NCBI GenBank assembly: GCA_965232845.1
Contig: OZ247428.1
Coordinates: forward strand, 897,511-961,510
DNA from: Dehalococcoidia bacterium
Lineage (GTDB): Bacteria; Chloroflexota; Dehalococcoidia; Lucifugimonadales; UBA3495
DNA: 64,000 bases
Direction of reading: 5' to 3'
Part shown: positions 41,651-53,240 of the stretch, one piece after another
Position numbering within the stretch: position 1 is the stretch's first letter
Layout of the letters: every line of letters begins with the position of its first letter
The notes under the pieces: generated by a model
What the model was told of the DNA's origin: nothing
Database searches by the model: none
The model's input: the letters and a program-made list of their open reading frames with translations, nothing else
Translations under genes and position numbers: made by a program

Positions 41651-42823
41651 ATGTCATTTACCAGCTTTTTTGACTCTGTAGAAACGCCTTCCTTCGTGTA
41701 TGATGAGACGGAAGTCGGCAGAGTGCTGGATATCGCCGAATCACTGCGCCGTACGTCAGGTTGTCGCGTCCTATACTCCATTAAGCCTCTATGCTTTCCT
41801 CCATTGCTGGAATTGATGGCGGCGAAACTGGACGGTTTTGCCGTCAGTTCCCTATTCGAGGCGCGATTGGCCCGCTCCATCTTGGGTGACCGGGGGCAAT
41901 TACACTTCACTAGTCCTGGCATCCGCCCGGGGGAGCCTGAAGAACTGGCCTCACTCTGTGACTACGTTGCCTTCAACAGCTTGACCCAATGGGAAAGGCA
42001 CAGTGGGAAGTTTGTTGGGCGGGCAAGTTGTGGTTTGCGAGTTAATCCCGGCCTGTCCTTTCTTGATGATGAGAGATATGACCCCTGCCGAGAAGGTTCC
42101 AAGCTAGGAATATCCCTGGAATCCTTGTCAGAAAATTTGGGGAACCACAAGGCTTTCTTGAATGGGATAGACGGCACGCTGATTCACTCCAATTGCGAAT
42201 CTATTGACTTCAGAGAACTCGAAGAAACCGTGGCCTTGCTTGAAGAAGAGATTCCCCAATTCCTGGGACGCCTAAAGTGGATCAATTTGGGTGGGGGCTA
42301 TCTCTTCAACAAGGATGTGGATATCGGGCCGCTGCAGAGAGTCATTCGGGTGCTTCAATCTAACTGGGGACTGGACGTATACCTGGAACCGGGAGCGGCC
42401 TTTGTCCGTTCGGCTGGGTATCTTGTGGCTTCCGTGCTGGATATTTTTCCCAGCGGGCGCACGAACATTGCAGTGCTGGATACAACGGTGAACCACATGC
42501 CCGAGTTGTTGGAGTTCGATTTTGAGCCGGACATCGAGGGGCATATGAACGACGGCCAATGGGAATATACTCTCGCGGGATGCACTTGCCTGGCCGGAGA
42601 CTTGTTCGGTGAATACCGTTTCAACAAACCGCTTTCAATTGGAGACCGGATCATATTCAGAAACGTGGGTTCGTACACCCTGACTAAAGCGCACATGTTC
42701 AACGGAGTGAACCTGCCCAGCATTTATTCCCTGGGGGACCGAGGGGAGTTGAACCTGTTGAAGACTTTTGGATACGAAGACTTCTCATCTCGTTGGAATA
42801 CGCATGCCGGCAGTTCTGTTTGA
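41651..42823 (+). CDS. nspC: Carboxynorspermidine/carboxyspermidine decarboxylase (PLP, alanine-racemase fold)
   Basis: 390 aa. ETPSFVYDETEV..., PLP-Lys context VLYSIKPLCF, LDGFAVSSLFEARLA, CDYVAFNSLTQW, INLGGGY, and CLAGDLFGEY. These align by eye with Vibrio NspC blocks. Confidence 0.8.
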   Translation: MSFTSFFDSVETPSFVYDETEVGRVLDIAESLRRTSGCRVLYSIKPLCFPPLLELMAAKLDGFAVSSLFEARLARSILGDRGQLHFTSPGIRPGEPEELASLCDYVAFNSLTQWERHSGKFVGRASCGLRVNPGLSFLDDERYDPCREGSKLGISLESLSENLGNHKAFLNGIDGTLIHSNCESIDFRELEETVALLEEEIPQFLGRLKWINLGGGYLFNKDVDIGPLQRVIRVLQSNWGLDVYLEPGAAFVRSAGYLVASVLDIFPSGRTNIAVLDTTVNHMPELLEFDFEPDIEGHMNDGQWEYTLAGCTCLAGDLFGEYRFNKPLSIGDRIIFRNVGSYTLTKAHMFNGVNLPSIYSLGDRGELNLLKTFGYEDFSSRWNTHAGSSV

Positions 42824-44117
42824 AAGAGAATTAATCGTCCCCCGCAATTACCAGAAAAGGAACCCACTGTTTCACCTGGAAGGCGCTCTCCTTTCTCAGT
42901 CGGAAGGGGGAGACGTTCCAATCCGATTGGCCGTTACATCTTCCTCAGAAGAAGGCTATCACTGCGAAGTAGGTCTGCTTTCTGGCTGGGAGGGCTCAGA
43001 ATTGCCTTCCCTCTTTCGTTGTCATCGCCGGTCCCTTGAAAACAATAACCAATTCACTTGCGTGCTCCTGGTCCCCACCGGCATTGGCGCAGAGATAGGA
43101 GGCCATGCCGGGGACGCCACGCCGGTCTCGGCGCTGCTGGCGGCCGCCTGCGACACACTGATCACCCACCCTAACGTCGTTAATGCCTCGGACATAATAG
43201 ACATACCCTCAAATGCTCTCTATGTAGAGGGCAGCGTTATTAGCCGCCTTCTCTTGGGTGTTATAGGACTGCAGCCGGTGCGCAGAAACCGGGTCCTGGT
43301 GGTTTTGGGACACCATGACGACGACTTATTCATCCATGCGGCTATTAACTCTGTCAATGCGGCCAGGGCCAGTTACGGTTTGACAGTGCCCAGTATCGTA
43401 AGGTTAGGCCCGGAATTTGAAATGGAGGCCAATTACGTCGAATCTGGCAGGGCCGCGGGAAAGGTCGGGGGGCTGAACGTTCTGTTTAGCGCCTTACAGG
43501 AACGAGACCACTCCTTTGATGCGGTGGCGATAACTTCACAAATCCTTGTCCCTGCCGGTTACCACGCGGACTATTTCGAGAGCAACGGCGAGATGGTAAA
43601 TCCGTGGGGCGGAGTAGAAGCCATGCTGACTCATGCCGTTTCCACCATTTTCAATGTGCCTTCTGCTCATGCGCCTATGCTGGAAACCCAGGAAATTGCT
43701 AATGCTGACCCGGGCATCATCGACCCGCGGATGGCGGCTGAGGGCGTATCCCTTGCCCTGATACAGTCCGTATTGAAGGGCTTGCAACGGAGCCCGAGGA
43801 TAGTATCCGAACTGGAAGGGATGAATCATCCCAGCGTGATAACGGCCGCCGAAGTTTCTTGCCTGGTAATCCCGGACGGATGCGTGGGGCTACCGGTGTT
43901 GGCAGCTTTGGAGCAGGGAATACCTGTAATTGCGGTCAAGGAAAACCGCAACCTCATGAGGAACGACCTGGCTGACCTGCCCTGGGCTGAGGGACAACTT
44001 ATCCCCGTAGACAACTATTGGGAAGCAGCCGGAGTGATTTCAGCTCTCAGGGCGGGTATTGACCCTGCGGCAGTGCGTCGCCCGATTCCTCTTGCACCCG
44101 TAAATTGGCACCTGTAA
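42804..44117 (+). CDS. DUF3326-like protein of unknown function
   Basis: About 437 aa from ATG 42804 (track ORF from TTG 42768). Overlaps the nspC 3' end by at least 20 nt. Contains VLLVPTGIGAEIGGHAGDATPVSALLAAACDTLITHPNVVNASD, which I recall as the DUF3326 signature. Confidence 0.55.
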   Translation: MPAVLFERELIVPRNYQKRNPLFHLEGALLSQSEGGDVPIRLAVTSSSEEGYHCEVGLLSGWEGSELPSLFRCHRRSLENNNQFTCVLLVPTGIGAEIGGHAGDATPVSALLAAACDTLITHPNVVNASDIIDIPSNALYVEGSVISRLLLGVIGLQPVRRNRVLVVLGHHDDDLFIHAAINSVNAARASYGLTVPSIVRLGPEFEMEANYVESGRAAGKVGGLNVLFSALQERDHSFDAVAITSQILVPAGYHADYFESNGEMVNPWGGVEAMLTHAVSTIFNVPSAHAPMLETQEIANADPGIIDPRMAAEGVSLALIQSVLKGLQRSPRIVSELEGMNHPSVITAAEVSCLVIPDGCVGLPVLAALEQGIPVIAVKENRNLMRNDLADLPWAEGQLIPVDNYWEAAGVISALRAGIDPAAVRRPIPLAPVNWHL

Positions 44118-44162: not shown

Positions 44163-44188
44163 AAGCGGAACGCCATCGCGTTCCGCTT
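44163..44188. terminator. Bidirectional intrinsic terminator between the DUF3326-like gene and the psp operon
   Basis: AAGCGGAACGC-catc-GCGTTCCGCTT (11-bp stem). An A-run lies upstream on the plus strand, giving a U-tract (tttcttttct) for the minus-strand psp transcript. Confidence 0.75.
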
Positions 44189-44217: not shown

Positions 44218-44496
44218 CTAGCCCGGAAGCAAGCCATCTCCGATGAAGATATGCTCGGCCTCTTCCAGCGTCAAATCGATTTCCGGTAGTATGAAGTCTG
44301 ACTCAACCAACTCATCCAACGGCAACGGCGATCCCTTTTCCCTGACCAAAGAAATCATTTCCAGAAGCAGGGAACGAAAACTCTCTTCATTCTCGGTTTC
44401 CACAGCCTCAACCATGCGGTTGTCAATGTCATTCAGGTCGTCTATTACCGCGCCCGGCAAATTGAACTGACCTTCACCTAATATTCTAACGATCAT
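44218..44496 (-). CDS. PspA-associated protein PspAA
   Basis: 92 aa, acidic. MIVRILGEGQF...DDLNDIDNRMVEAV...SFRSLLLEMISLVREKG...GLLPG. Sits 26 nt downstream of pspA with a GGGTGG RBS. Confidence 0.7.
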   Translation of the reverse strand: MIVRILGEGQFNLPGAVIDDLNDIDNRMVEAVETENEESFRSLLLEMISLVREKGSPLPLDELVESDFILPEIDLTLEEAEHIFIGDGLLPG

Positions 44497-44522: not shown

Positions 44523-45302
44523 CTAGCTAGATCCCTGGTTCCTCAAGGCGTCCAATTCGGCATCTACGGCAGAACCGCTCGACGATGGCAGCGCCCTGGT
44601 CTGGCTTGCGGGGCTAATGCCCTTAAGGGCCGCCAATTCATCCTCGACGCTTTGCGAGATGGAAATCTGCGAAAGCTCCCTTTCGATATCATCCTGGGGG
44701 CCGTTAACATCATCGAGAACACCGGTGGCCACCAACTCGTCAATGGCGCCGGCCTTCGCCCGCATCTGGTCCGTTTTGTTCTCTGCACGTTGCACCGCCA
44801 GCGAGACGTCCCCCATTTCTTCCGAAATCCCGCCTAGAGCCGCCCCGATTCTTACCTGGGCCTGGGCCGCGGTGTACTGAGCCTTGATAATTTCCTTCTT
44901 GTTGCGGAAGGCGTCGACCTTAGTTTGCAGGCGCTGCTCCGCGATGGTGAGCTTCTGTTGCTCCTGCTCCATCCCCTCTATCTGTTCGTCCAACCCCTGC
45001 AATTCGATTACCGCATTTTGCTTTCGTTGGAGAGCCAGACGGGCCAGGTCCTCGCGGTCAGCATCCAGGGCTTGCTTGGCCTGACGTTCCAGCCTCGTTA
45101 TGTTTTCTTTAACCTTGGTAGCCTGCTGCTGGATGCGTCGCTTGGCCGTAACCATTTCGACGACTCCTCGCTTGACGTTCTGCAACATTTCGAGTTGCTT
45201 TTCGTAGGAATAGTCAAGAGTCTCCCGCGGGTCTTCCGCGGAATCCAATATGCGGTTCATTTTCGACTTTACGATGGTCGACATCCTTGAAAACATTCCC
45301 AT
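44523..45302 (-). CDS. pspA: PspA/IM30/Vipp1-family membrane-stress protein
   Basis: 259 aa. MGMFSRMSTIVKSKMNRILDSAEDPRETLDYSYEKQLEMLQNVKRGVVEMVTAKRRIQ, then long coiled-coil heptads and an S/A-rich tail. Confidence 0.9.
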   Translation of the reverse strand: MGMFSRMSTIVKSKMNRILDSAEDPRETLDYSYEKQLEMLQNVKRGVVEMVTAKRRIQQQATKVKENITRLERQAKQALDADREDLARLALQRKQNAVIELQGLDEQIEGMEQEQQKLTIAEQRLQTKVDAFRNKKEIIKAQYTAAQAQVRIGAALGGISEEMGDVSLAVQRAENKTDQMRAKAGAIDELVATGVLDDVNGPQDDIERELSQISISQSVEDELAALKGISPASQTRALPSSSGSAVDAELDALRNQGSS

Positions 45303-45405
45303 GGGAACAACCTCCAGCTAAAAGAAACTTCCCGGCCCTTTCCGGCAGCTCAACTTGCAGCTTCTCGATTGGTTCTAGATTTACTGTCCTTGTCCCAACT
45401 CAGTC

Positions 45406-45582
45406 TCAGTATCTATCCTTCTTCCCGAAGATAGCCATGGCGCCAACTATAACTCCGAGGACAATGCAGATTGCCCCAAGAATCCAGAGCAAGAAGTTGA
45501 GGATGCCGCTGACTAACAGTATCCCCAGGACCAACAAGAATATTGCGACACCAATTCCACCAAAAGACCCAGATATCGACAT
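45406..45582 (-). CDS. Small (58 aa) two-TM membrane protein, first gene of the psp operon (below the ORF-track size cutoff)
   Basis: Manual translation: MSISGSFGGIGVAIFLLVLGILLVSGILNFLLWILGAICIVLGVIVGAMAIFGKKDRY*. GAGGA RBS 7 nt upstream of the ATG. Stops 103 nt upstream of pspA. Confidence 0.6.
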   Translation of the reverse strand: MSISGSFGGIGVAIFLLVLGILLVSGILNFLLWILGAICIVLGVIVGAMAIFGKKDRY

Positions 45583-46172
45583 GAACTATTCCTCGCCTGA
45601 TTAAGGGGGTTTCGGACCGGTAGGGTCAAATTGCCAAGTTTTGTTCAACCGCAAGAATATTACGGACACAGAAATGGATTGCATCGGCAACAGTCGGTAC
45701 GAAGATTCACACACCCGTACTTTCCACAACCATATTCCTTCAAGTCAACAATACCTTCCCTTCCCCCTAGGGTCAAGGGAAACCAAATTACGTTGCAGGG
45801 CAATCATCATCAAGAGGACGGGATTTGCCAAGAAGGACTTGATCGATGCCAATGTGGGAGCAGGATCAACAAATCCCCCCCGTTTCCGCTAAATTCTGCC
45901 CGTTCTTAGTCTTGGCAGTGTAACAGTGAGTAGCCGAAGGACGGGAGGTATCGCAAAGACTATAGCGGTAGAGGGTAACAGGGCCTGCCCAGTGACGGTT
46001 GCTATCGATCTCGGATCACGTTCGTCCAAAAGAACAATGGTAGAAGAGTTGAACACGAAAAACCAATAACGGTCAGCAATGCGTGCAGAATTGCGACAAC
46101 CCGGAATTCTGCCGCAATCAGGTTCGGCCCAGCAAGAACTGATTGACTGCTTTATAGGAGCCTGCTAACCCG

Positions 46173-46181
46173 TGCTATTAT
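46173..46181 (+). promoter_or_regulatory. Candidate extended -10 promoter (TGcTATTAT) for the DUF4178/DUF350 operon
   Basis: cgTGcTATTATgtag, about 115 nt upstream of the ATG at 46298. No good -35. Confidence 0.35.
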
Positions 46182-46297
46182 GTAGTGAGTTTAGAATAAT
46201 ACGCCGTGGTTCGGGTTCAGTAGTTCGGAATCTTAGTCCTGATTCAGATTACCTGGACAGCATTGAGTAGAAGGTAAGTGAGGATTGGGGGTCAGCA

Positions 46298-46900
46298 ATG
46301 TTACGGTCTCTTTTCGGCAAAGGTAAGAAAAAACGAGAACCAACGAATGCGCGCCTGGAAACGAGCATTCGAGATGCCAGGGTCGGGGACGTCGTAGTCA
46401 TCCAAGGGTTGGCCCTGGAGTACGAAGACTGTTACTTCGTAGTGGAGAATATTCATCGGTATGGGGGCAGCGGCATCGTCTGGTTTGAACTGGTGGTCGC
46501 CGACTCCGACAATCGCATTTGGCTGGAATGGTCCGAGGACGATTCCGGGCTATTTGTTACCGCAACTGACAATCGCCGCCCCGTTGGTCTGGAATCCATC
46601 GGCTTGACGGAGTCTGACCTTATGTCGATCGATGAACAACGATCGATAGACCGCTCTCTAGTTGTAGATGGATTGCGCTATATCTATCGCAATAGTTTTG
46701 AAGCCTTCTATTTTCGTGACAATAGGCCAACCAACGGCGAAGGCTTTTACATGTGGGAGTTTCTTGCGGAGGACGAGAGTCGGACCCTGGCAATAACCAA
46801 GTTTGAAGATGTCCCATTCGAAGCCCACTTCAGCGAAATAATGGACCCGGACAACGTTCACCTCTATCCCGGCGAAAGGCCGGAACACAGGAGCCGGTGA
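46298..46900 (+). CDS. DUF4178-like protein
   Basis: 200 aa. VGDVVVIQGLALEYEDCYFVVENIHRYGGSGIVWFELVVADSDNRIWLEWSEDD, then a second beta-rich repeat (YMWEFLAEDESRTLAITKFED). GGATTGGGGG RBS. Confidence 0.55.
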   Translation: MLRSLFGKGKKKREPTNARLETSIRDARVGDVVVIQGLALEYEDCYFVVENIHRYGGSGIVWFELVVADSDNRIWLEWSEDDSGLFVTATDNRRPVGLESIGLTESDLMSIDEQRSIDRSLVVDGLRYIYRNSFEAFYFRDNRPTNGEGFYMWEFLAEDESRTLAITKFEDVPFEAHFSEIMDPDNVHLYPGERPEHRSR

Positions 46901-47811
46901 GTGAGATGCTGGAAGCCCTTAACGATTCGTTAGTATTTTTCCCGAGGGGACTGATCTACGTCGCTCTTGGCGTTGTGGTGATGGTACTGGCCAAGTTTGC
47001 CAGGGATCTCACTACGAGACACAGACTGGACGAGGAAGTAGTCCAAAAGAAGAACCTCTCCGAGGCATTGCGGATATCTGGCTACTTTTTTGGAGTAGTG
47101 CTGGTATTCGTTGGCGCTGTTTACCAACCTACCTACCTGGCGCAGGTCGACATCGGTCTGGGATTCAATGCAGACTTTGGCATTGACGTTCTTCGGGTTT
47201 TCCTTTATTCACTAGCCGGCATTGTTGCGCTGAATCTGGTGCGTGTTGTGATGGACCGGCTGGTGCTCTACAAGTTAGATGTTGAAAAGCAAGTAATACA
47301 GGACCAGAACTCGGCAACAGGTGCGGCCGAGTTCGGACTATTCGTGGCCACGGGACTGGTTATCGCGGGCGTCCTTTCCGGTTCGGGAGGGGAGAGCGAA
47401 CTGTCAGAGGCCCTTATTTCCCTGGCTTTCTTTGTATTGGGGCAAATAGTGCTGGTCTTGTTCGCACTTTCTTACGAGTTTACAACCTCATTTGACATTC
47501 ACGAGGAGATCGAAAAGGACAACCTTGCAGTTGGAGTCGCCTTTGGTGGGAACCTTGTCGCCATTGGCCTGGTTATGCTCAAGGCCTTGTCCGGAGATTT
47601 TCAGGGTTGGCTGCAGGGCATAACCGAGTTCGTTATCTTTGCCTTAGTTGGATTTGTTCTGCTCTATGTGCTGAGGCTGCTGGTGGACTTGCTTGTGCTG
47701 CCAAGAGTCCGAGTTTCTGAGGAGATGTCTTCGGGCCAGAATGTGGGAGTTGCCTTTCTCGAAAGCGCCGTGGTGATCAGCTCTTCCCTGATTCTCTTCT
47801 TCGCAATTTAG
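46897..47811 (+). CDS. Integral membrane protein with duplicated DUF350-like modules
   Basis: 304 aa, about 8 predicted TM helices in two similar halves (each with ...D/EEI/V..KNL/NLA.AL/GV...). GTG 46897 overlaps the upstream TGA (GTGA); alternative ATG at 46906. Confidence 0.6.
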   Translation: MSEMLEALNDSLVFFPRGLIYVALGVVVMVLAKFARDLTTRHRLDEEVVQKKNLSEALRISGYFFGVVLVFVGAVYQPTYLAQVDIGLGFNADFGIDVLRVFLYSLAGIVALNLVRVVMDRLVLYKLDVEKQVIQDQNSATGAAEFGLFVATGLVIAGVLSGSGGESELSEALISLAFFVLGQIVLVLFALSYEFTTSFDIHEEIEKDNLAVGVAFGGNLVAIGLVMLKALSGDFQGWLQGITEFVIFALVGFVLLYVLRLLVDLLVLPRVRVSEEMSSGQNVGVAFLESAVVISSSLILFFAI

Positions 47812-49088: not shown

Positions 49089-49892
49089 TTACCCGCCCTT
49101 TCCCCTTAGATTCAAGTGACCGCCACCGCCAGTGAAGCTGCCGCTACGGGCGCGGCCGGACGACGAGCCGAAACTGGAACGCGAGGACCTTGAGACGGCG
49201 CTGCTGGACCTGAAGGCTCCCGAAGTCCTCTGCGTCTGCTGGTAGCTTTGCCGATTTGAACTGAGGTTACGGCTGGAGTCCTGGTAACGGGAACCGGCGA
49301 AACCCTGCTGCCTGGTGGAATACCTGCTATTTCGCGCGACCTGGCTGGCATACCGGCTGGAGCCACGGTAATTTGCCCTACTGCGCCGAATTGAAGAGCC
49401 CCGGCTGACCGGGGTGGAATAGAAATAGGGGCCCGGATAGAACGCGGTGGCCAACATATAACCGAACAGGAAGCTTCCTCCCCCAAAGCTGCTGTGGTAG
49501 TAGCCGTTGGCGTTGTGACCGCGCATTTCGTGCTGATCGTTGTTCTGTACGATGGAAAAGAGCTGGTCATCCCCAGAATCTTCGATTTCGTTGTTTCCGT
49601 TCAGGTCCTCCCAACCCTCCAGGGTCAGGTTGTCTCCGTTCTGCTGGGCGCGGATCAATATGATTCCGTCGCCTTCATAGATTTCATTTACCCGTTCTTC
49701 GAATTCGGTGGCGCTCTCGGACTCCTTAAATGCCTGCTGAACGTCGTCCAGATTTATGCGGCCGGCGGCACCGTCGGTGGCGGCCCAGGTATCATAGGAT
49801 GGACCACTGCTGCAAGCGGCTATCAGCGGGGAACCGGCCACCATGCTTCCGGCAAAAATTGCCGCGCTTAATCTCCTCAGTCTCGGTGCCAT
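49089..49892 (-). CDS. Lipoprotein with acidic N-domain, hydrophobic Gly/aromatic segment and about 100-aa Ser/Arg/Gly/Gln-rich tail
   Basis: The ATG at 49892 has a GGAG RBS 5 nt upstream. MAPRLRRLSAAIFAGSMVAGSPLIAAC-SS lipobox. ...DLNGNNEIEDSGDD...GGGSFLFGYMLATAFYPGPYFY...RGSSIRRSRANYRGSSRYASQVARNSRYS...SRSSRSSFGSSSGRARSGSFTGGGG. Confidence 0.65.
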   Translation of the reverse strand: MAPRLRRLSAAIFAGSMVAGSPLIAACSSGPSYDTWAATDGAAGRINLDDVQQAFKESESATEFEERVNEIYEGDGIILIRAQQNGDNLTLEGWEDLNGNNEIEDSGDDQLFSIVQNNDQHEMRGHNANGYYHSSFGGGSFLFGYMLATAFYPGPYFYSTPVSRGSSIRRSRANYRGSSRYASQVARNSRYSTRQQGFAGSRYQDSSRNLSSNRQSYQQTQRTSGAFRSSSAVSRSSRSSFGSSSGRARSGSFTGGGGHLNLRGKGG

Positions 49893-49985
49893 CTCAACTC
49901 CTTTAATTGGGCCCAACCACGTTGTTGGAAGATAATGCCTGGGAGTCCTCTCCCTTCGATGCGGGAGGAAAAGCAATCCGATAGT

Positions 49986-52900
49986 TCATGCTACAAGTTG
50001 ACCAATTTCCCGGCTTAACTCAGAATCTTCGGCTTTTTCGTCGGACACCCGGGTAACGGTCTGCAGGGGAAACGTCAATATGCTCGAAAGAAATAGATCA
50101 CTTAGAGTTTCCTGGAACCGGTCCCACTGCTCCGCCGCATGAATTATGTAGTCTGCAACCGCCGACTTGTGCCCGATGCTGGCAGCCACAGAACTGAAAA
50201 CTGACCGTCTCAGGATCTTCCTATGCTGCAACCAGGCCTCGTCGCCGCATTCCAGGAGCAATTGCCGTGCCAGTTCATTGAATCCCTCGATTCCGATATG
50301 GGCCCGACGGACTTCCAACATTTCCATCAGTTGATCCGCCAACCTGTGGGGAACTTCGTCCAAAGCAACCCCCCGGAGGCTGGAAAGGTCGACTTCAAAC
50401 ATATGGCGGGCATCTTCGGACAAATTAGCAAACTGTTTTGCATAGTCGATTGAGTCCATCCCTGGGAAGTGCGACTCAACCAAACGCCGGGCAGTGTCAG
50501 CAACGAAGATCGGCAGGTTCTCTGCCGGGTTGGCCTTGTTCAATAATTGGCCGCGCATTTCGTAATAGGCAGCGCTGTGCTCATCAACCACTGCAGAGTA
50601 GTCGCCAAGAACGCTGCGGCGATGGGCCGCCTCGGTCTCCGCTTCAATTTGACGACTCCTGATAAAACGCTCAACCTCTTTGCCTTCAAAGTACGTTCGA
50701 CCGCCGTTATCAACTTTGCGACACCGGTCCAGGTTAGGACCTCTCTTTCCCAATGAGAACAAAGACTGGTCGTCCCACGACAGCAGCGCCCGGGAGGAAC
50801 CAAAATTTCCCTGCCGGCCGCTTCTTCCTTTCAATTGAAGCGCAACCCGAGGGAACTGATTAAATTCAGAACTTACGACGTGCAGTCCCAAGCCAAATTC
50901 CAGAGTTGGAATGAATCCAATACCTTTGTCTGGATTGCTGGGGGCATTTTCAAGAGAGACTACCAGGGAATAACACCCTTGTTGGTCTTCTGCCGCAACC
51001 ACCAATCCGGGTAGGGCCAACAGAGATTCCCGAAGCAGTTGCCCCTCCGTCTTGGAATTGCACCGAATCCTGACATGGGGACAATCGCCGGCCATTCGAC
51101 TACGGACCCGGGCGACGCATTGACGGAGGACGTCCCGGTCCAAGTCAGCAGCCAGGACTATGTCTGTTCCGCGTCCAGCCATATTGGTAGCCACGGTAAC
51201 GGCGCCGAAATTTCCTGCAGTGCGGACTATCTCAGCCTCTTTGAAACTATTGACGGCATTTAGCACCTGGTGTCCGATGCCGGCGCTCTGCAGCGCCTGG
51301 CTGAGCTTCCAGGATTGCTCGACTGTCTGTACACCCGCCAACACCGGTCGCCCAAGCAGGTTGCATGACACAACTTCAGCTACGATGGCGGCGGTCCTAT
51401 TTTCCTCAGTCAAATATATGCGGGTAGCCAGATCGGAACGTTTTGGAGGATATGTGGTTGGTACGGACGCTACCTTTAAGGAATACCGCCGCCAAAACTC
51501 TTCGGAGGCATCGGATGCTGTTCCAGTTGTTCCGGCCAACGATGGGTAGCGGCAAACAAAACCTTGCACCGAAATCTGGGCCAGGCTCTCGTGATCCGGC
51601 TCTACCGCGACCCCCACTTTTGCCTGAAGCGCGGGCTGCAGTCCGTCCTGGTAGGAATTGTCCGGCTTAAGTCTGCCGGTGTATTTATCCAGGAGAAACA
51701 CCGAGCCGTCAGCAACCATATAGTCCACGTCTTGCACCAGGATCAAGTGCGCACGAAGGGATTGATACACCTGGTTAGCCAAGTCAAGCCGGCGCATTGC
51801 TCTGCGGGAGAGCTGACCCTCCAGACTGGCATCGACCTCATTCCTGGAAGTGGCAACGTTGAAGTCCCCCAATTGACCTTCCAGGAATGCCATACCTTTT
51901 TCGGTCAGGGTTACCAGATTCTCCTGCGGGTCTGCTATGTAATACAGGCCACCAGTCAAGGACTCATCGGGAGAGTCGTTACCATTGGGGTACAAGCCCG
52001 CCATACCCCGTCGATAGGAACGCGGGTAAATGAGGGCCAACCTTCGCAGTTGCTCGTTACGAGGACTGGCCAGCAGACCCAGGCAGACTAGAGTCGCAAA
52101 ACTGGCGTGCGATGGGTCTGTATCTCTTAATGTGGTCAGGTATTCGCTGGCTAGATCTTCCTGACGGGCCACCATTCCAGCTACCGCCCGATTGACCCGG
52201 TGCAATGGCTGGGAATTACCTACGGGAGCTCCCGCTATGATAAGCGGGGTGTCAGCTTCATCAATTAAAGCTTGGTCGACTTCATCGACTATGGCCACCT
52301 GAAGGAGCGGTTGGATTACTTCTTGCCTCCCACGAGCCAGATTGTCCCGTAGATAGTCGAAACCAAACTGGCGCAAGGTACCATACACAATGTCACACTT
52401 ATAGGCCGCTTTCCTTTCAACGTCGTCCATGGCATCAAGGATGGCGTCCACCGAGAAACCCAAAGAGTGGTAAACCTCAGCCAAGAGCCGGCAATCACGC
52501 TCGGCCAGGTAGTCGTTGGCAGTCAGGATATGAACTGAACGTCCCAGCACAGCGTGCATAACTGCGGCAAAGGCAATGGCCACCGTCTTGCCTTCCCCAG
52601 CCTGCATTTCCACGACCTTGCCTTCCAGGAGTAGAACGCCGGCAAGGAGTTGCTCATCCGTAGGGTCGTAACGGAAATTCCTTTCGGCGTCTTTGCCTTC
52701 CATCGCTTGATAGAAAGAGGCGGGAAACTGTAAGTCCAACCCGTAGCGCCCCGGGGAGGCCGATCGCGCCAACTTGATGGCGTGGACTATGTTGATTTCC
52801 TCTGAGTCCAGCTTTGCGGCGTTTGGTTCGCCGTTCGCGACTTTGAAGCAGTCACCGAAGTCGGCCTGCCTGCGAGGGTTGTTAAACAAACGCCAGGCGC

Positions 52901-53240
52901 CAAGCTTTCGCCGGATACACTCGTCGACTATGGCAAATACTGAGGGCACATAGTCAGCCGCTCCAGGGCGGCCGGAAGAGCTCTCGACTTCGGTCTTGAT
53001 GCTCTGCAGGGCTTCCTTGAGTCGAAAGTCGGAAAGGTCCTGGACCTGTAACCTGCTTCGGGAGCGACGTATTTCTTGAACCACTTCCTGCTTGCGCTGT
53101 CTCCCAGAGGCTGGCCAGGCACGCCCAAACTTGGAAGCACCATCAAACAGGGTTCGCGCAACCCTCTCCAGTCCCGCCAACCGACGGTTCGTGGCAACGG
53201 ACTCGAAAATGCCAATTGACTTTGGATTGATTGCAGCCAT
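49986..53240 (-). CDS. Divergent SecA-family ATPase (SecA paralogue)
   Basis: 1084 aa. Walker A MQAGEGKT, TANDYLAERD, FGFDYLRDNL, DEAD-box VDEVDQALIDEADTPLIIAG, PPXD-like YYIADPQENLVTLTEKG, LAGTTGTA, GRPVLAG, ATNMAGRGTDI, LKGRSGRQGNFGSS, and a helical scaffold (YSAVVDEHSAAYYEMRGQLL). GAGGG RBS. Confidence 0.8.
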   Translation of the reverse strand: MAAINPKSIGIFESVATNRRLAGLERVARTLFDGASKFGRAWPASGRQRKQEVVQEIRRSRSRLQVQDLSDFRLKEALQSIKTEVESSSGRPGAADYVPSVFAIVDECIRRKLGAWRLFNNPRRQADFGDCFKVANGEPNAAKLDSEEINIVHAIKLARSASPGRYGLDLQFPASFYQAMEGKDAERNFRYDPTDEQLLAGVLLLEGKVVEMQAGEGKTVAIAFAAVMHAVLGRSVHILTANDYLAERDCRLLAEVYHSLGFSVDAILDAMDDVERKAAYKCDIVYGTLRQFGFDYLRDNLARGRQEVIQPLLQVAIVDEVDQALIDEADTPLIIAGAPVGNSQPLHRVNRAVAGMVARQEDLASEYLTTLRDTDPSHASFATLVCLGLLASPRNEQLRRLALIYPRSYRRGMAGLYPNGNDSPDESLTGGLYYIADPQENLVTLTEKGMAFLEGQLGDFNVATSRNEVDASLEGQLSRRAMRRLDLANQVYQSLRAHLILVQDVDYMVADGSVFLLDKYTGRLKPDNSYQDGLQPALQAKVGVAVEPDHESLAQISVQGFVCRYPSLAGTTGTASDASEEFWRRYSLKVASVPTTYPPKRSDLATRIYLTEENRTAAIVAEVVSCNLLGRPVLAGVQTVEQSWKLSQALQSAGIGHQVLNAVNSFKEAEIVRTAGNFGAVTVATNMAGRGTDIVLAADLDRDVLRQCVARVRSRMAGDCPHVRIRCNSKTEGQLLRESLLALPGLVVAAEDQQGCYSLVVSLENAPSNPDKGIGFIPTLEFGLGLHVVSSEFNQFPRVALQLKGRSGRQGNFGSSRALLSWDDQSLFSLGKRGPNLDRCRKVDNGGRTYFEGKEVERFIRSRQIEAETEAAHRRSVLGDYSAVVDEHSAAYYEMRGQLLNKANPAENLPIFVADTARRLVESHFPGMDSIDYAKQFANLSEDARHMFEVDLSSLRGVALDEVPHRLADQLMEMLEVRRAHIGIEGFNELARQLLLECGDEAWLQHRKILRRSVFSSVAASIGHKSAVADYIIHAAEQWDRFQETLSDLFLSSILTFPLQTVTRVSDEKAEDSELSREIGQLVA

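Follow-up and report, generated by a model that had tools for sequence, protein, structure and literature searches.

The question raised by this locus is how a polyamine-type decarboxylase obtains its substrate when the enzyme that normally makes it is missing. The 64,000-nt stretch of DNA analysed here (the window) covers positions C1:897511–961510 of genome G000, a closed, single-contig Dehalococcoidia genome of 3.75 Mb and 96% completeness, whose nearest relatives carry the names of uncultured marine Dehalococcoidia or SAR202-type Chloroflexota. Within it, a gene related to nspC, the gene for carboxy(nor)spermidine decarboxylase, runs into a gene for a protein of the DUF3326 family. An earlier note on this DNA had seen no gene for the usual partner, carboxynorspermidine dehydrogenase (CANSDH), and had suggested that the DUF3326 protein supplies or modifies the substrate of the decarboxylase or else consumes its product. 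This remains the best reading of the locus; the direction, with DUF3326 acting first, is one that we infer.

We give a probability of about one half to the reading in which DUF3326 makes the C–N link first and the decarboxylase then finishes a specialised polyamine. The two proteins would form one translationally coupled two-enzyme module leading to a polyamine-type amine. DUF3326 would form the C–N (secondary-amine) bond, replacing the missing dehydrogenase of the CANSDH, CASDH or CAPADH type, by joining an amine to an amino-acid-derived unit, probably through nucleotide-cofactor-dependent imine chemistry at its glycine-rich loops. The resulting alpha-amino acid would carry a cationic group at its far end, and the nspC-like enzyme, which depends on pyridoxal phosphate (PLP), would then strip the alpha-carboxylate. 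The final product would probably be a specialised amine and not bulk spermidine, perhaps N-acylated or conjugated by linked envelope genes, namely those for PspA/PspAA, DUF4178, DUF350, a SecA-like ATPase and a Cys-His-Asp enzyme that resembles arylamine N-acetyltransferase (NAT). The features of the pair are as follows.

41651..42823, plus strand: nspC-like PLP-dependent (fold-type III) decarboxylase, 390 aa, matching TIGR01047 and PF00278
42804..44117, plus strand: DUF3326 protein, 437 aa from ATG 42804, matching PF11805
42768..44117, plus strand: the DUF3326 protein from the alternative start TTG 42768, 449 aa
42804..42823, plus strand: overlap of the 3' end of the decarboxylase gene with the start of the DUF3326 gene, 20 nt, read from the sequence
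44163..44188, no strand assigned: GC-rich hairpin with a perfect 11-bp stem between the convergent DUF3326 and pspAA genes, a terminator-like site with its T-run on the minus strand

Both open reading frames (ORFs) lie at the positions that the earlier note had given, and its overlap of 20–56 nt can be narrowed. Since close homologues of the DUF3326 protein are 437–438 aa long, translation probably starts at ATG 42804, which gives a 20-nt overlap; the 56-nt version, from TTG 42768, is disfavoured by the same lengths. The −20 ATG junction is seen again in 28 related loci. Other junctions between nspC-like and DUF3326 genes stand at −14, −4 or +8 nt, and 59 of 64 lie between −23 and +8 nt, which agrees with the coupled expression that had been read from the overlap. 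To judge from the sequence, the two genes are translationally coupled. The hairpin downstream is probably a shared terminator that closes the DUF3326 and pspAA transcription units. The genes that flank the pair encode NIPSNAP and PspAA.

A conserved pair and a missing dehydrogenase

A one-genome-per-species scan with a diverse DUF3326 profile returned at least 578 encoding stretches, the closest 80 of which were analysed. In 80 of these 80 loci no more than 400 bp separate DUF3326 from a decarboxylase gene, which is nearly always upstream of it; in L074 and L075 the order of the two genes is inverted and the adjacency is kept. The partner is nspC-like in 65 loci and a small protein of the S-adenosylmethionine decarboxylase (AdoMetDC) fold in the other 15 (PF02675, 47–56 bits). 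An adjacency of this kind is far beyond chance. A natural AdoMet_dc–DUF3326 fusion (P0123), and viral contigs in which an AdoMetDC-like gene directly precedes DUF3326, speak likewise for an obligate partnership. It also appears in samples drawn without regard to the pair, where G310 (Chloroflexota) and G420 (Pseudomonadota, with a 29-nt overlap) carry the nspC-like and DUF3326 genes together, so the co-occurrence across genomes that had been proposed as a check is borne out.

DUF3326 is rare in broad samples: it turned up in 2 genomes among 400 further Chloroflexota, in 1 among 400 further Pseudomonadota and in 0 among 250 further genomes from the same class. Because these samples held too few carriers, we replaced a class-level contingency table with a census of the 41 closest relatives. 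Both genes are present and adjacent in 21 of these and both are lacking in 19; the one further relative has an nspC-like fragment alone, cut by the end of a contig. The two genes are thus gained and lost as a unit among these relatives. Within the genus, 15 of 16 species carry the pair. When the matrices of pairwise identity are compared between the two proteins, the correlation is r = 0.94, a value reached in 0 of 999 permutations.

The absence of CANSDH, noted at first for the window, extends to the whole genome. PF16653, the CANSDH-type family, has no match anywhere in the single contig, and the sole genome match to PF03435 (26.6 bits) is shikimate dehydrogenase (AroE), not CANSDH. PF16653 was likewise not found in 5 of 5 other pair-carrying Dehalococcoidia or in 22 of 22 close relatives with an nspC-like gene. 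The genome holds no homologue of deoxyhypusine synthase (DHS) or homospermidine synthase (HSS) (PF01916), and the nspC-like gene is the sole CANSDC homologue here and in the other pair-carrying genomes checked. A decarboxylase cannot form a C–N bond. Because of this, because the usual substrate-maker is missing and because DUF3326 is the sole invariant partner, DUF3326 would be the bond-forming enzyme. The earlier note had said beforehand that a canonical CANSDH elsewhere combined with an adjacency that is not general, or else a wrong DUF3326 call, would speak against it; none of the three was found.

The genome has other polyamine genes. A canonical speH-speE pair lies at C1:1350309–1351412, about 410 kb from the window pair. 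At C1:781744–783036 a gene of the AdoMetDC fold (AdoMet_dc, 85 bits, 156-aa frame; L093, L095) adjoins a gene of the arginase/agmatinase family (197 bits). An AdoMetDC-derived arginine decarboxylase next to an agmatinase is a known gene arrangement (PMC10407285), and by this analogy the two genes have the arrangement of an arginine-to-putrescine pair. With speH-speE present, the decarboxylase–DUF3326 pair would be unneeded for ordinary spermidine synthesis and is unlikely to be the bulk spermidine route of the cell. A specialised amine is the more probable product because both speH-speE and the arginine-to-putrescine pair are already in place.

The two proteins and the proposed order of steps

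The decarboxylase matches the TIGR01047 (nspC) model at 305 bits (E 4e-91), short of the 409 bits set as the equivalog cut-off. Among the DUF3326-linked copies, the 22 that are full-length score 270–305 bits, and two cut by contig ends score lower. PF00278 also matches. Its best solved relative is the Clostridium leptum carboxyspermidine decarboxylase (9EAF, 293 bits), followed by 3N29 (224 bits) and by 36GY and 3MT1 (202 bits), whereas diaminopimelate, ornithine and lysine decarboxylases reach 45 bits at most.

We mapped the residues described for the C. leptum enzyme, ClCASDC (PMC11866407), onto HMMER alignments. K45, H179, C313, D317 and Y342 align with K43, H170, C306, D310 and Y335 of 9EAF. 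Together with E246, G248, F350 and N351 these residues are invariant in 65 of 65 DUF3326-linked homologues, down to 47% identity; they comprise the Schiff-base Lys, the stacking His, the Cys and Asp of the CLAGD motif, the phosphate-binding Tyr and the FN loop. The substrate pocket differs. E183, D287, Y293 and D342 (Sll0873 numbering) are substrate contacts reported to be completely conserved in CAPADC, CANSDC and CASDC (PMC10599626). The acid at the first position is kept, as E183 in the window and as Asp or Glu in 65 of 65 homologues. D287, on the specificity helix, is replaced by Glu285 (Glu in 65 of 65 and in G420), D342 by Asn338 (Asn in 55 of 65) and Y293 by Phe291 (Phe in 39 and Tyr in 23 of 65), whereas Asp occupies the D287 and D342 positions alike in each of the four solved enzymes.

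The score below the equivalog cut-off and the remodelled pocket place the decarboxylase, as far as sequence can say, in a DUF3326-linked subclade of the CANSDC/CASDC/CAPADC family and not among canonical NspC proteins. The label nspC holds for the family of PLP decarboxylases and fails for the canonical enzyme. With its catalytic residues invariant and the specificity-helix acid kept as Glu, the protein looks active, and it would still offer an acid to a cationic group at the far end of its substrate. That substrate is probably not a known carboxyaminopropyl amine.

In the published pathways that depend on aspartate semialdehyde (CANSDH/CANSDC, CASDH/CASDC and CAPADH/CAPADC; PMC10599626, PMC11866407, PMC13683441), we find a homologous decarboxylase with the same catalytic residues and the same two-gene-unit logic as in the window. 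Those pathways use a partner of the saccharopine dehydrogenase family, which the window genome is without, and DUF3326 is unrelated to CANSDH, CASDH and CAPADH in sequence and fold. Their decarboxylases also differ from that of the window, which has E, F and N at the D287, Y293 and D342 positions and scores below the NspC cut-off. Slr0049, the dehydrogenase of the CAPA pathway, was considered as a possible DUF3326 protein and rejected, as it is published as a member of the saccharopine dehydrogenase family.

The sole experimental precedent for a decarboxylase–DUF3326 pair is pavAB. In the pavABC cluster of Burkholderia sensu lato, formation of N-(5-aminopentyl)pentane-1,5-diamine depends on PavA (a Rieske domain joined to a CANSDC-like decarboxylase) as well as on PavB (DUF3326), and a P. 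caledonica strain with pavBC only, lacking pavA, makes no triamine although cadaverine is present in all strains (bioRxiv 10.64898/2026.06.12.731819). The lack of triamine without pavA despite cadaverine favours decarboxylation after coupling. PavA and PavB, compared here by description only, resemble the window pair in that the genes for a CANSDC-like PLP decarboxylase and for DUF3326 are neighbours. PavA has 1119 aa with an N-terminal Rieske [2Fe-2S] oxygenase domain, whereas the window decarboxylase is a stand-alone protein of 390 aa with decarboxylase domains only. The Pav cluster also has the JmjC-like PavC, and no PavC-like gene flanks the window pair. It is borne on plasmids and insertion sequences in plant endophytes, whereas the window pair sits in an uncultured marine Chloroflexota among PspA, DUF4178 and DUF350 genes. 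What is new here relative to print is that the decarboxylase stands alone, that oxygenases are absent, that the lineage differs and that the context is one of envelope stress.

The DUF3326 assignment is firm. PF11805 matches the protein at 301 bits (cut-off 25) over profile positions 1–336 of 337, 62 of 62 diverse homologues match as well, and the ORF bears the motifs PTGIGAEIGGHAGDATPV...ITHPNVVNASD quoted by the earlier note. In an AlphaFold2 model built with 52 homologues (pLDDT 82.5, pTM 0.87), the first 85 aa or so form a beta-alpha-beta-beta domain, and the remainder folds into two alpha/beta lobes that bear glycine-rich loops. Low confidence is restricted to loops 94–102 and 125–131, and no glycine-rich motifs of the protein are better conserved than these two; this is the pattern expected if they become ordered upon ligand binding. 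The polar residues T92, D104, N124, E272, H289, E313 and Y405 are invariant in 62 diverse members. No relative of known fold emerged. A sequence profile search of the PDB returned noise (E>0.1), and Foldseek against the PDB gave no match below E 1e-3, the weak partial matches being flavodoxin-like, lumazine-synthase-like and LacI-like (E about 1e-3 or weaker, TM 0.2 on the query). PF11805 was the only Pfam family at E<=5, and NCBIfam, PADLOC and PHROGs had no DUF3326 match. The prediction of structure and ligand pocket that had been proposed thus yielded a confident model with conserved loops, but neither a fold relative nor a cofactor site.

A distant member of the family bears on what DUF3326 might make. 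In L100 (G223:C1:2243000–2251000) a DUF3326 protein of 441 aa, 35% identical to that of the window, is encoded 36 nt downstream of a 1203-aa non-ribosomal peptide synthetase (NRPS) with the domain order T-C-A-T, and no decarboxylase is found near it. PLP decarboxylases, pyruvoyl decarboxylases and NRPS A-domains all act on the carboxylate of an amino acid, so a DUF3326 protein that makes an amino acid would fit all three partners.

The main rival is the reverse order of steps, which we consider possible though less likely. The decarboxylase would then make a diamine or an agmatine-like amine from a simple amino acid, and DUF3326 would couple or modify it, for example by an NAD+-dependent condensation like that of homospermidine synthase, giving a symmetric triamine. 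The Pav product is such a compound, a symmetric C5-N-C5 triamine as from two cadaverines, and a decarboxylase gene that stands upstream in nearly all loci is in keeping with this order. The replacements at contacts reported as invariant would fit a changed substrate class (PMC10599626), and AdoMetDC homologues that have become ornithine or arginine decarboxylases are known to cluster with HSS or SpeY (PMC10407285). Against this order stand the P. caledonica strains, which had cadaverine throughout and yet made no triamine without pavA. The window enzyme scores 293 bits to carboxy-polyamine decarboxylases against 45 bits at most to those acting on ornithine, lysine or diaminopimelate, and characterised CAPADC is inactive on ornithine, arginine, lysine and diaminopimelate. 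Nor does a decarboxylase-first order readily explain a DUF3326 protein paired with an NRPS.

The reading in which DUF3326 acts first has its own difficulties. Measured against every characterised carboxy-polyamine decarboxylase (PMC10599626), the exchanges D287→E, D342→N and Y293→F mean that the substrate may be no carboxyaminopropyl amine at all. The AdoMetDC-fold partners resemble the ornithine and arginine decarboxylases found beside homospermidine synthases (PMC10407285), by which analogy the decarboxylase could act first. DUF3326 has no assignable cofactor site, Foldseek offering only the weak flavodoxin-like and LacI-like matches, and its glycine-rich loop differs from the classical GxGxxG Rossmann motif. 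No member of the family is known to have been characterised biochemically, and among the papers searched the pavABC preprint alone gives DUF3326 a role. The link to the envelope genes, as read from the sequences, is one of conserved neighbourhood, and the NAT-like assignment of the Cys-His-Asp protein is tentative because the catalytic core of its model has low confidence.

The envelope neighbourhood and the possible biological role

Downstream of the pair the window holds the following genes.

44218..44496, minus strand: PspAA (PspA-associated protein), PF22743 at 110.8 bits, syntenic in most SAR202-type loci
44523..45302, minus strand: PspA/IM30 membrane-stress protein, PF04012 at 94 bits, adjoining the pair in about 45 loci
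46298..46900, plus strand: DUF4178 protein, PF13785 at 29.7 bits
46897..47811, plus strand: DUF350 (YjfL-family) multi-pass membrane protein, PF03994 at 165.6 bits
47915..48952, minus strand: conserved 345-aa protein, no Pfam match, travelling with the DUF350/SecA-like block in related loci
49089..49976, minus strand: Ser/Arg-rich 295-aa protein, no Pfam match, position conserved in related loci
49986..53240, minus strand: divergent SecA-like ATPase, SecA domains being recorded for the syntenic gene in L006
53273..54676, minus strand: Cys-His-Asp enzyme-like protein, 467 aa, no Pfam family, weak arylamine-N-acetyltransferase/transglutaminase-like fold

Other SAR202-type genomes have the same context genes around the pair, in at least four arrangements, and the linkage of DUF4178 and DUF350 to the pair survives these rearrangements. 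In other genomes the SecA-like gene and the pair stand in one same-strand string and are apparently co-transcribed. This neighbourhood makes the envelope genes linked to the pair (PspA, DUF4178, DUF350 and SecA-like) the probable users of the amine.

The 467-aa protein is a candidate for that use. Its residues C227, H284 and D299 do not vary among 25 homologues. The AlphaFold2 model of the protein reaches a pLDDT of 73 with a low-confidence core, and the best Foldseek matches of the model are NAT and amide synthases (E about 2e-3). The gene immediately adjoins the pair in L053, L055, L058, L061, L067–L069, L072, L074 and L075, and in several loci it shares a strand with the SecA-like gene, both right next to the pair, in an operon-like arrangement. 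A consumer of the amine, which it would acylate or conjugate, would fit the modelled fold.

Neighbourhoods of this type have been described. In the PspA-DUF350-DUF4178 operons and those of the E. coli yjfIJKLMC type (Ravi et al. 2024, PMC11237479), as in the window, where the PF04012, PF13785 and PF03994 matches all lie within 44523–47811, these genes adjoin polyamine-type enzymes. The polyamine part of the published operons is a 7TM-fused spermidine-synthase-like protein or an AdoMetDC with an ATP-grasp ligase, whereas in the window this slot is filled by the decarboxylase–DUF3326 pair. The window adds PspAA, the SecA-like ATPase and the NAT-like Cys-His-Asp protein. Three loci of marine Alphaproteobacteria (L059, L065 and L076) string together, in this order, PspA, a glutathionylspermidine-synthase-like ligase (PF03738, 439 bits), an AdoMetDC-like gene and DUF3326 in a yjf-type membrane-stress cluster; the DUF3326 found in this alphaproteobacterial setting is 60% identical to that of the window.

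The AdoMetDC-like partners are themselves unusual. Those of L057–L088 have Thr-Ser (ILTSTIVIHTLD) where canonical SpeH has its Glu-Ser self-processing site (AESHISIHTWPE), but the His and the downstream Cys are retained, and the proteins share a conserved insertion, HFWDDVGVPxEEQQT. The published systems in which SpeDC or SpeDA stands with HSS or SpeY (PMC10407285) likewise place a small pyruvoyl decarboxylase beside an amine-coupling enzyme, as do the 15 AdoMetDC-like/DUF3326 loci and 44 viral loci described below. DUF3326, and not HSS or DHS, takes the place of the partner here, and the window decarboxylase is a PLP enzyme.

Some relatives of the pair stand in a setting of defence. Septu genes, PtuA (AAA_15) and PtuB, lie directly upstream of the pair in L057, L060, L062, L064, L070, L071, L080, L081 and L088, in hosts that include Phycisphaerae, Marinimicrobia, Actinomycetes, Binatia and Terriglobia. 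The partner of DUF3326 is nspC-like in L062 and L071 and AdoMetDC-like in the other seven, and an MfnB-like gene (4-(hydroxymethyl)-2-furancarboxaldehyde phosphate synthase, PF04476) often stands in front of the pair. In IMG/VR, 66 viral contigs (L101–L166) encode DUF3326 relatives, many in a short form without the N-terminal domain; an AdoMetDC-like gene lies directly upstream in 44 of the 66 and an nspC-like gene in none.

These loci raise the view that the pair is a virus–host conflict module, in which an amine is made or depleted for phage defence or counter-defence and not for envelope physiology. We think this improbable for the window. The Septu-linked pairs occur in other phyla with DUF3326 proteins 56–62% identical to that of the window, the viral copies mostly have an AdoMetDC-like partner, and the family is as sporadic in broad samples (0 of 250, 2 of 400 and 1 of 400 genomes) as a conflict module might be. 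However, no PtuA, PtuB or other defence match lies beside the window pair, and no PtuA-like, AdoMetDC-like, GSP_synth-like or MfnB-like sequence was found in the window. GenBank phage records gave no DUF3326 match. The presence of the pair in nearly all species of the genus and its stable envelope-gene neighbourhood look like vertical inheritance. The conflict view concerns the biological role and is compatible with the enzymology proposed here, with DUF3326 acting first.

A subunit, an ordinary route or a separate class of enzyme

DUF3326 might also be no pathway enzyme but a subunit that regulates, scaffolds or activates the decarboxylase, antizyme-like or a helper in proenzyme processing. 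A strict partnership with two unrelated decarboxylase folds, a natural fusion and the lack of a recognisable cofactor motif are what such a subunit might display. The fusion is P0123, which joins AdoMet_dc to DUF3326 and is the sole clean fusion among the long candidates. We nevertheless regard a subunit role as very unlikely. At 437 aa with two alpha/beta lobes, the protein has its invariant polar residues among glycine-rich loops at strand ends, a placement typical of catalytic or ligand sites, and its sequence varies less than that of the decarboxylase (mean pairwise identity 66% versus 57%). DUF3326 also occurs with an NRPS where no decarboxylase is present, and PavB is needed for C–N bond formation, which goes beyond any decarboxylase.

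That the locus serves an ordinary CANSDH/CANSDC route to norspermidine or spermidine, with the dehydrogenase encoded elsewhere and DUF3326 as an unrelated neighbour, is hardly credible even though the decarboxylase falls within the CANSDC family, as no PF16653 match was found here or in 27 other genomes carrying an nspC-like gene, the sole PF03435 match is AroE, a decarboxylase gene adjoins DUF3326 in every one of the 80 loci, the nspC-like gene and DUF3326 are present or absent jointly, and the decarboxylase scores below the equivalog cut-off with conserved contacts altered.

A bolder proposal, doubtful as a whole, is that DUF3326 represents an unrecognised class of C–N-forming polyamine enzyme, non-homologous to CANSDH/CASDH, to HSS/DHS and to the aminopropyltransferases and served by interchangeable PLP and pyruvoyl decarboxylases, and that the SAR202-type amine is attached by the NAT/transglutaminase-like Cys-His-Asp enzyme to an envelope target in the PspA/DUF350/SecA-like system. 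If the module works as we propose, it would add a further, unrelated polyamine route and would explain the orphan nspC and AdoMetDC-like genes of many genomes. It would also supply the missing chemistry of the pavettamine backbone. SAR202 is an abundant deep-ocean bacterial group, and a dedicated amine would there be tied to the PspA membrane-stress theme.

Among the long candidates that were rejected as fusions, P0255 and P0259, apparent nspC–DUF3326 fusions, resemble frame-shifted read-throughs of adjacent genes, and P0015 is an internal duplication or an assembly artefact. A metagenomic protein of 739 aa, P0124, consists of DUF3326 extended at its C-terminus by about 310 aa without a Pfam match. 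The DUF3326 family as a whole comprises 1162 clusters at 50% identity, which range from marine bacteria and phages to cyanobacteria.

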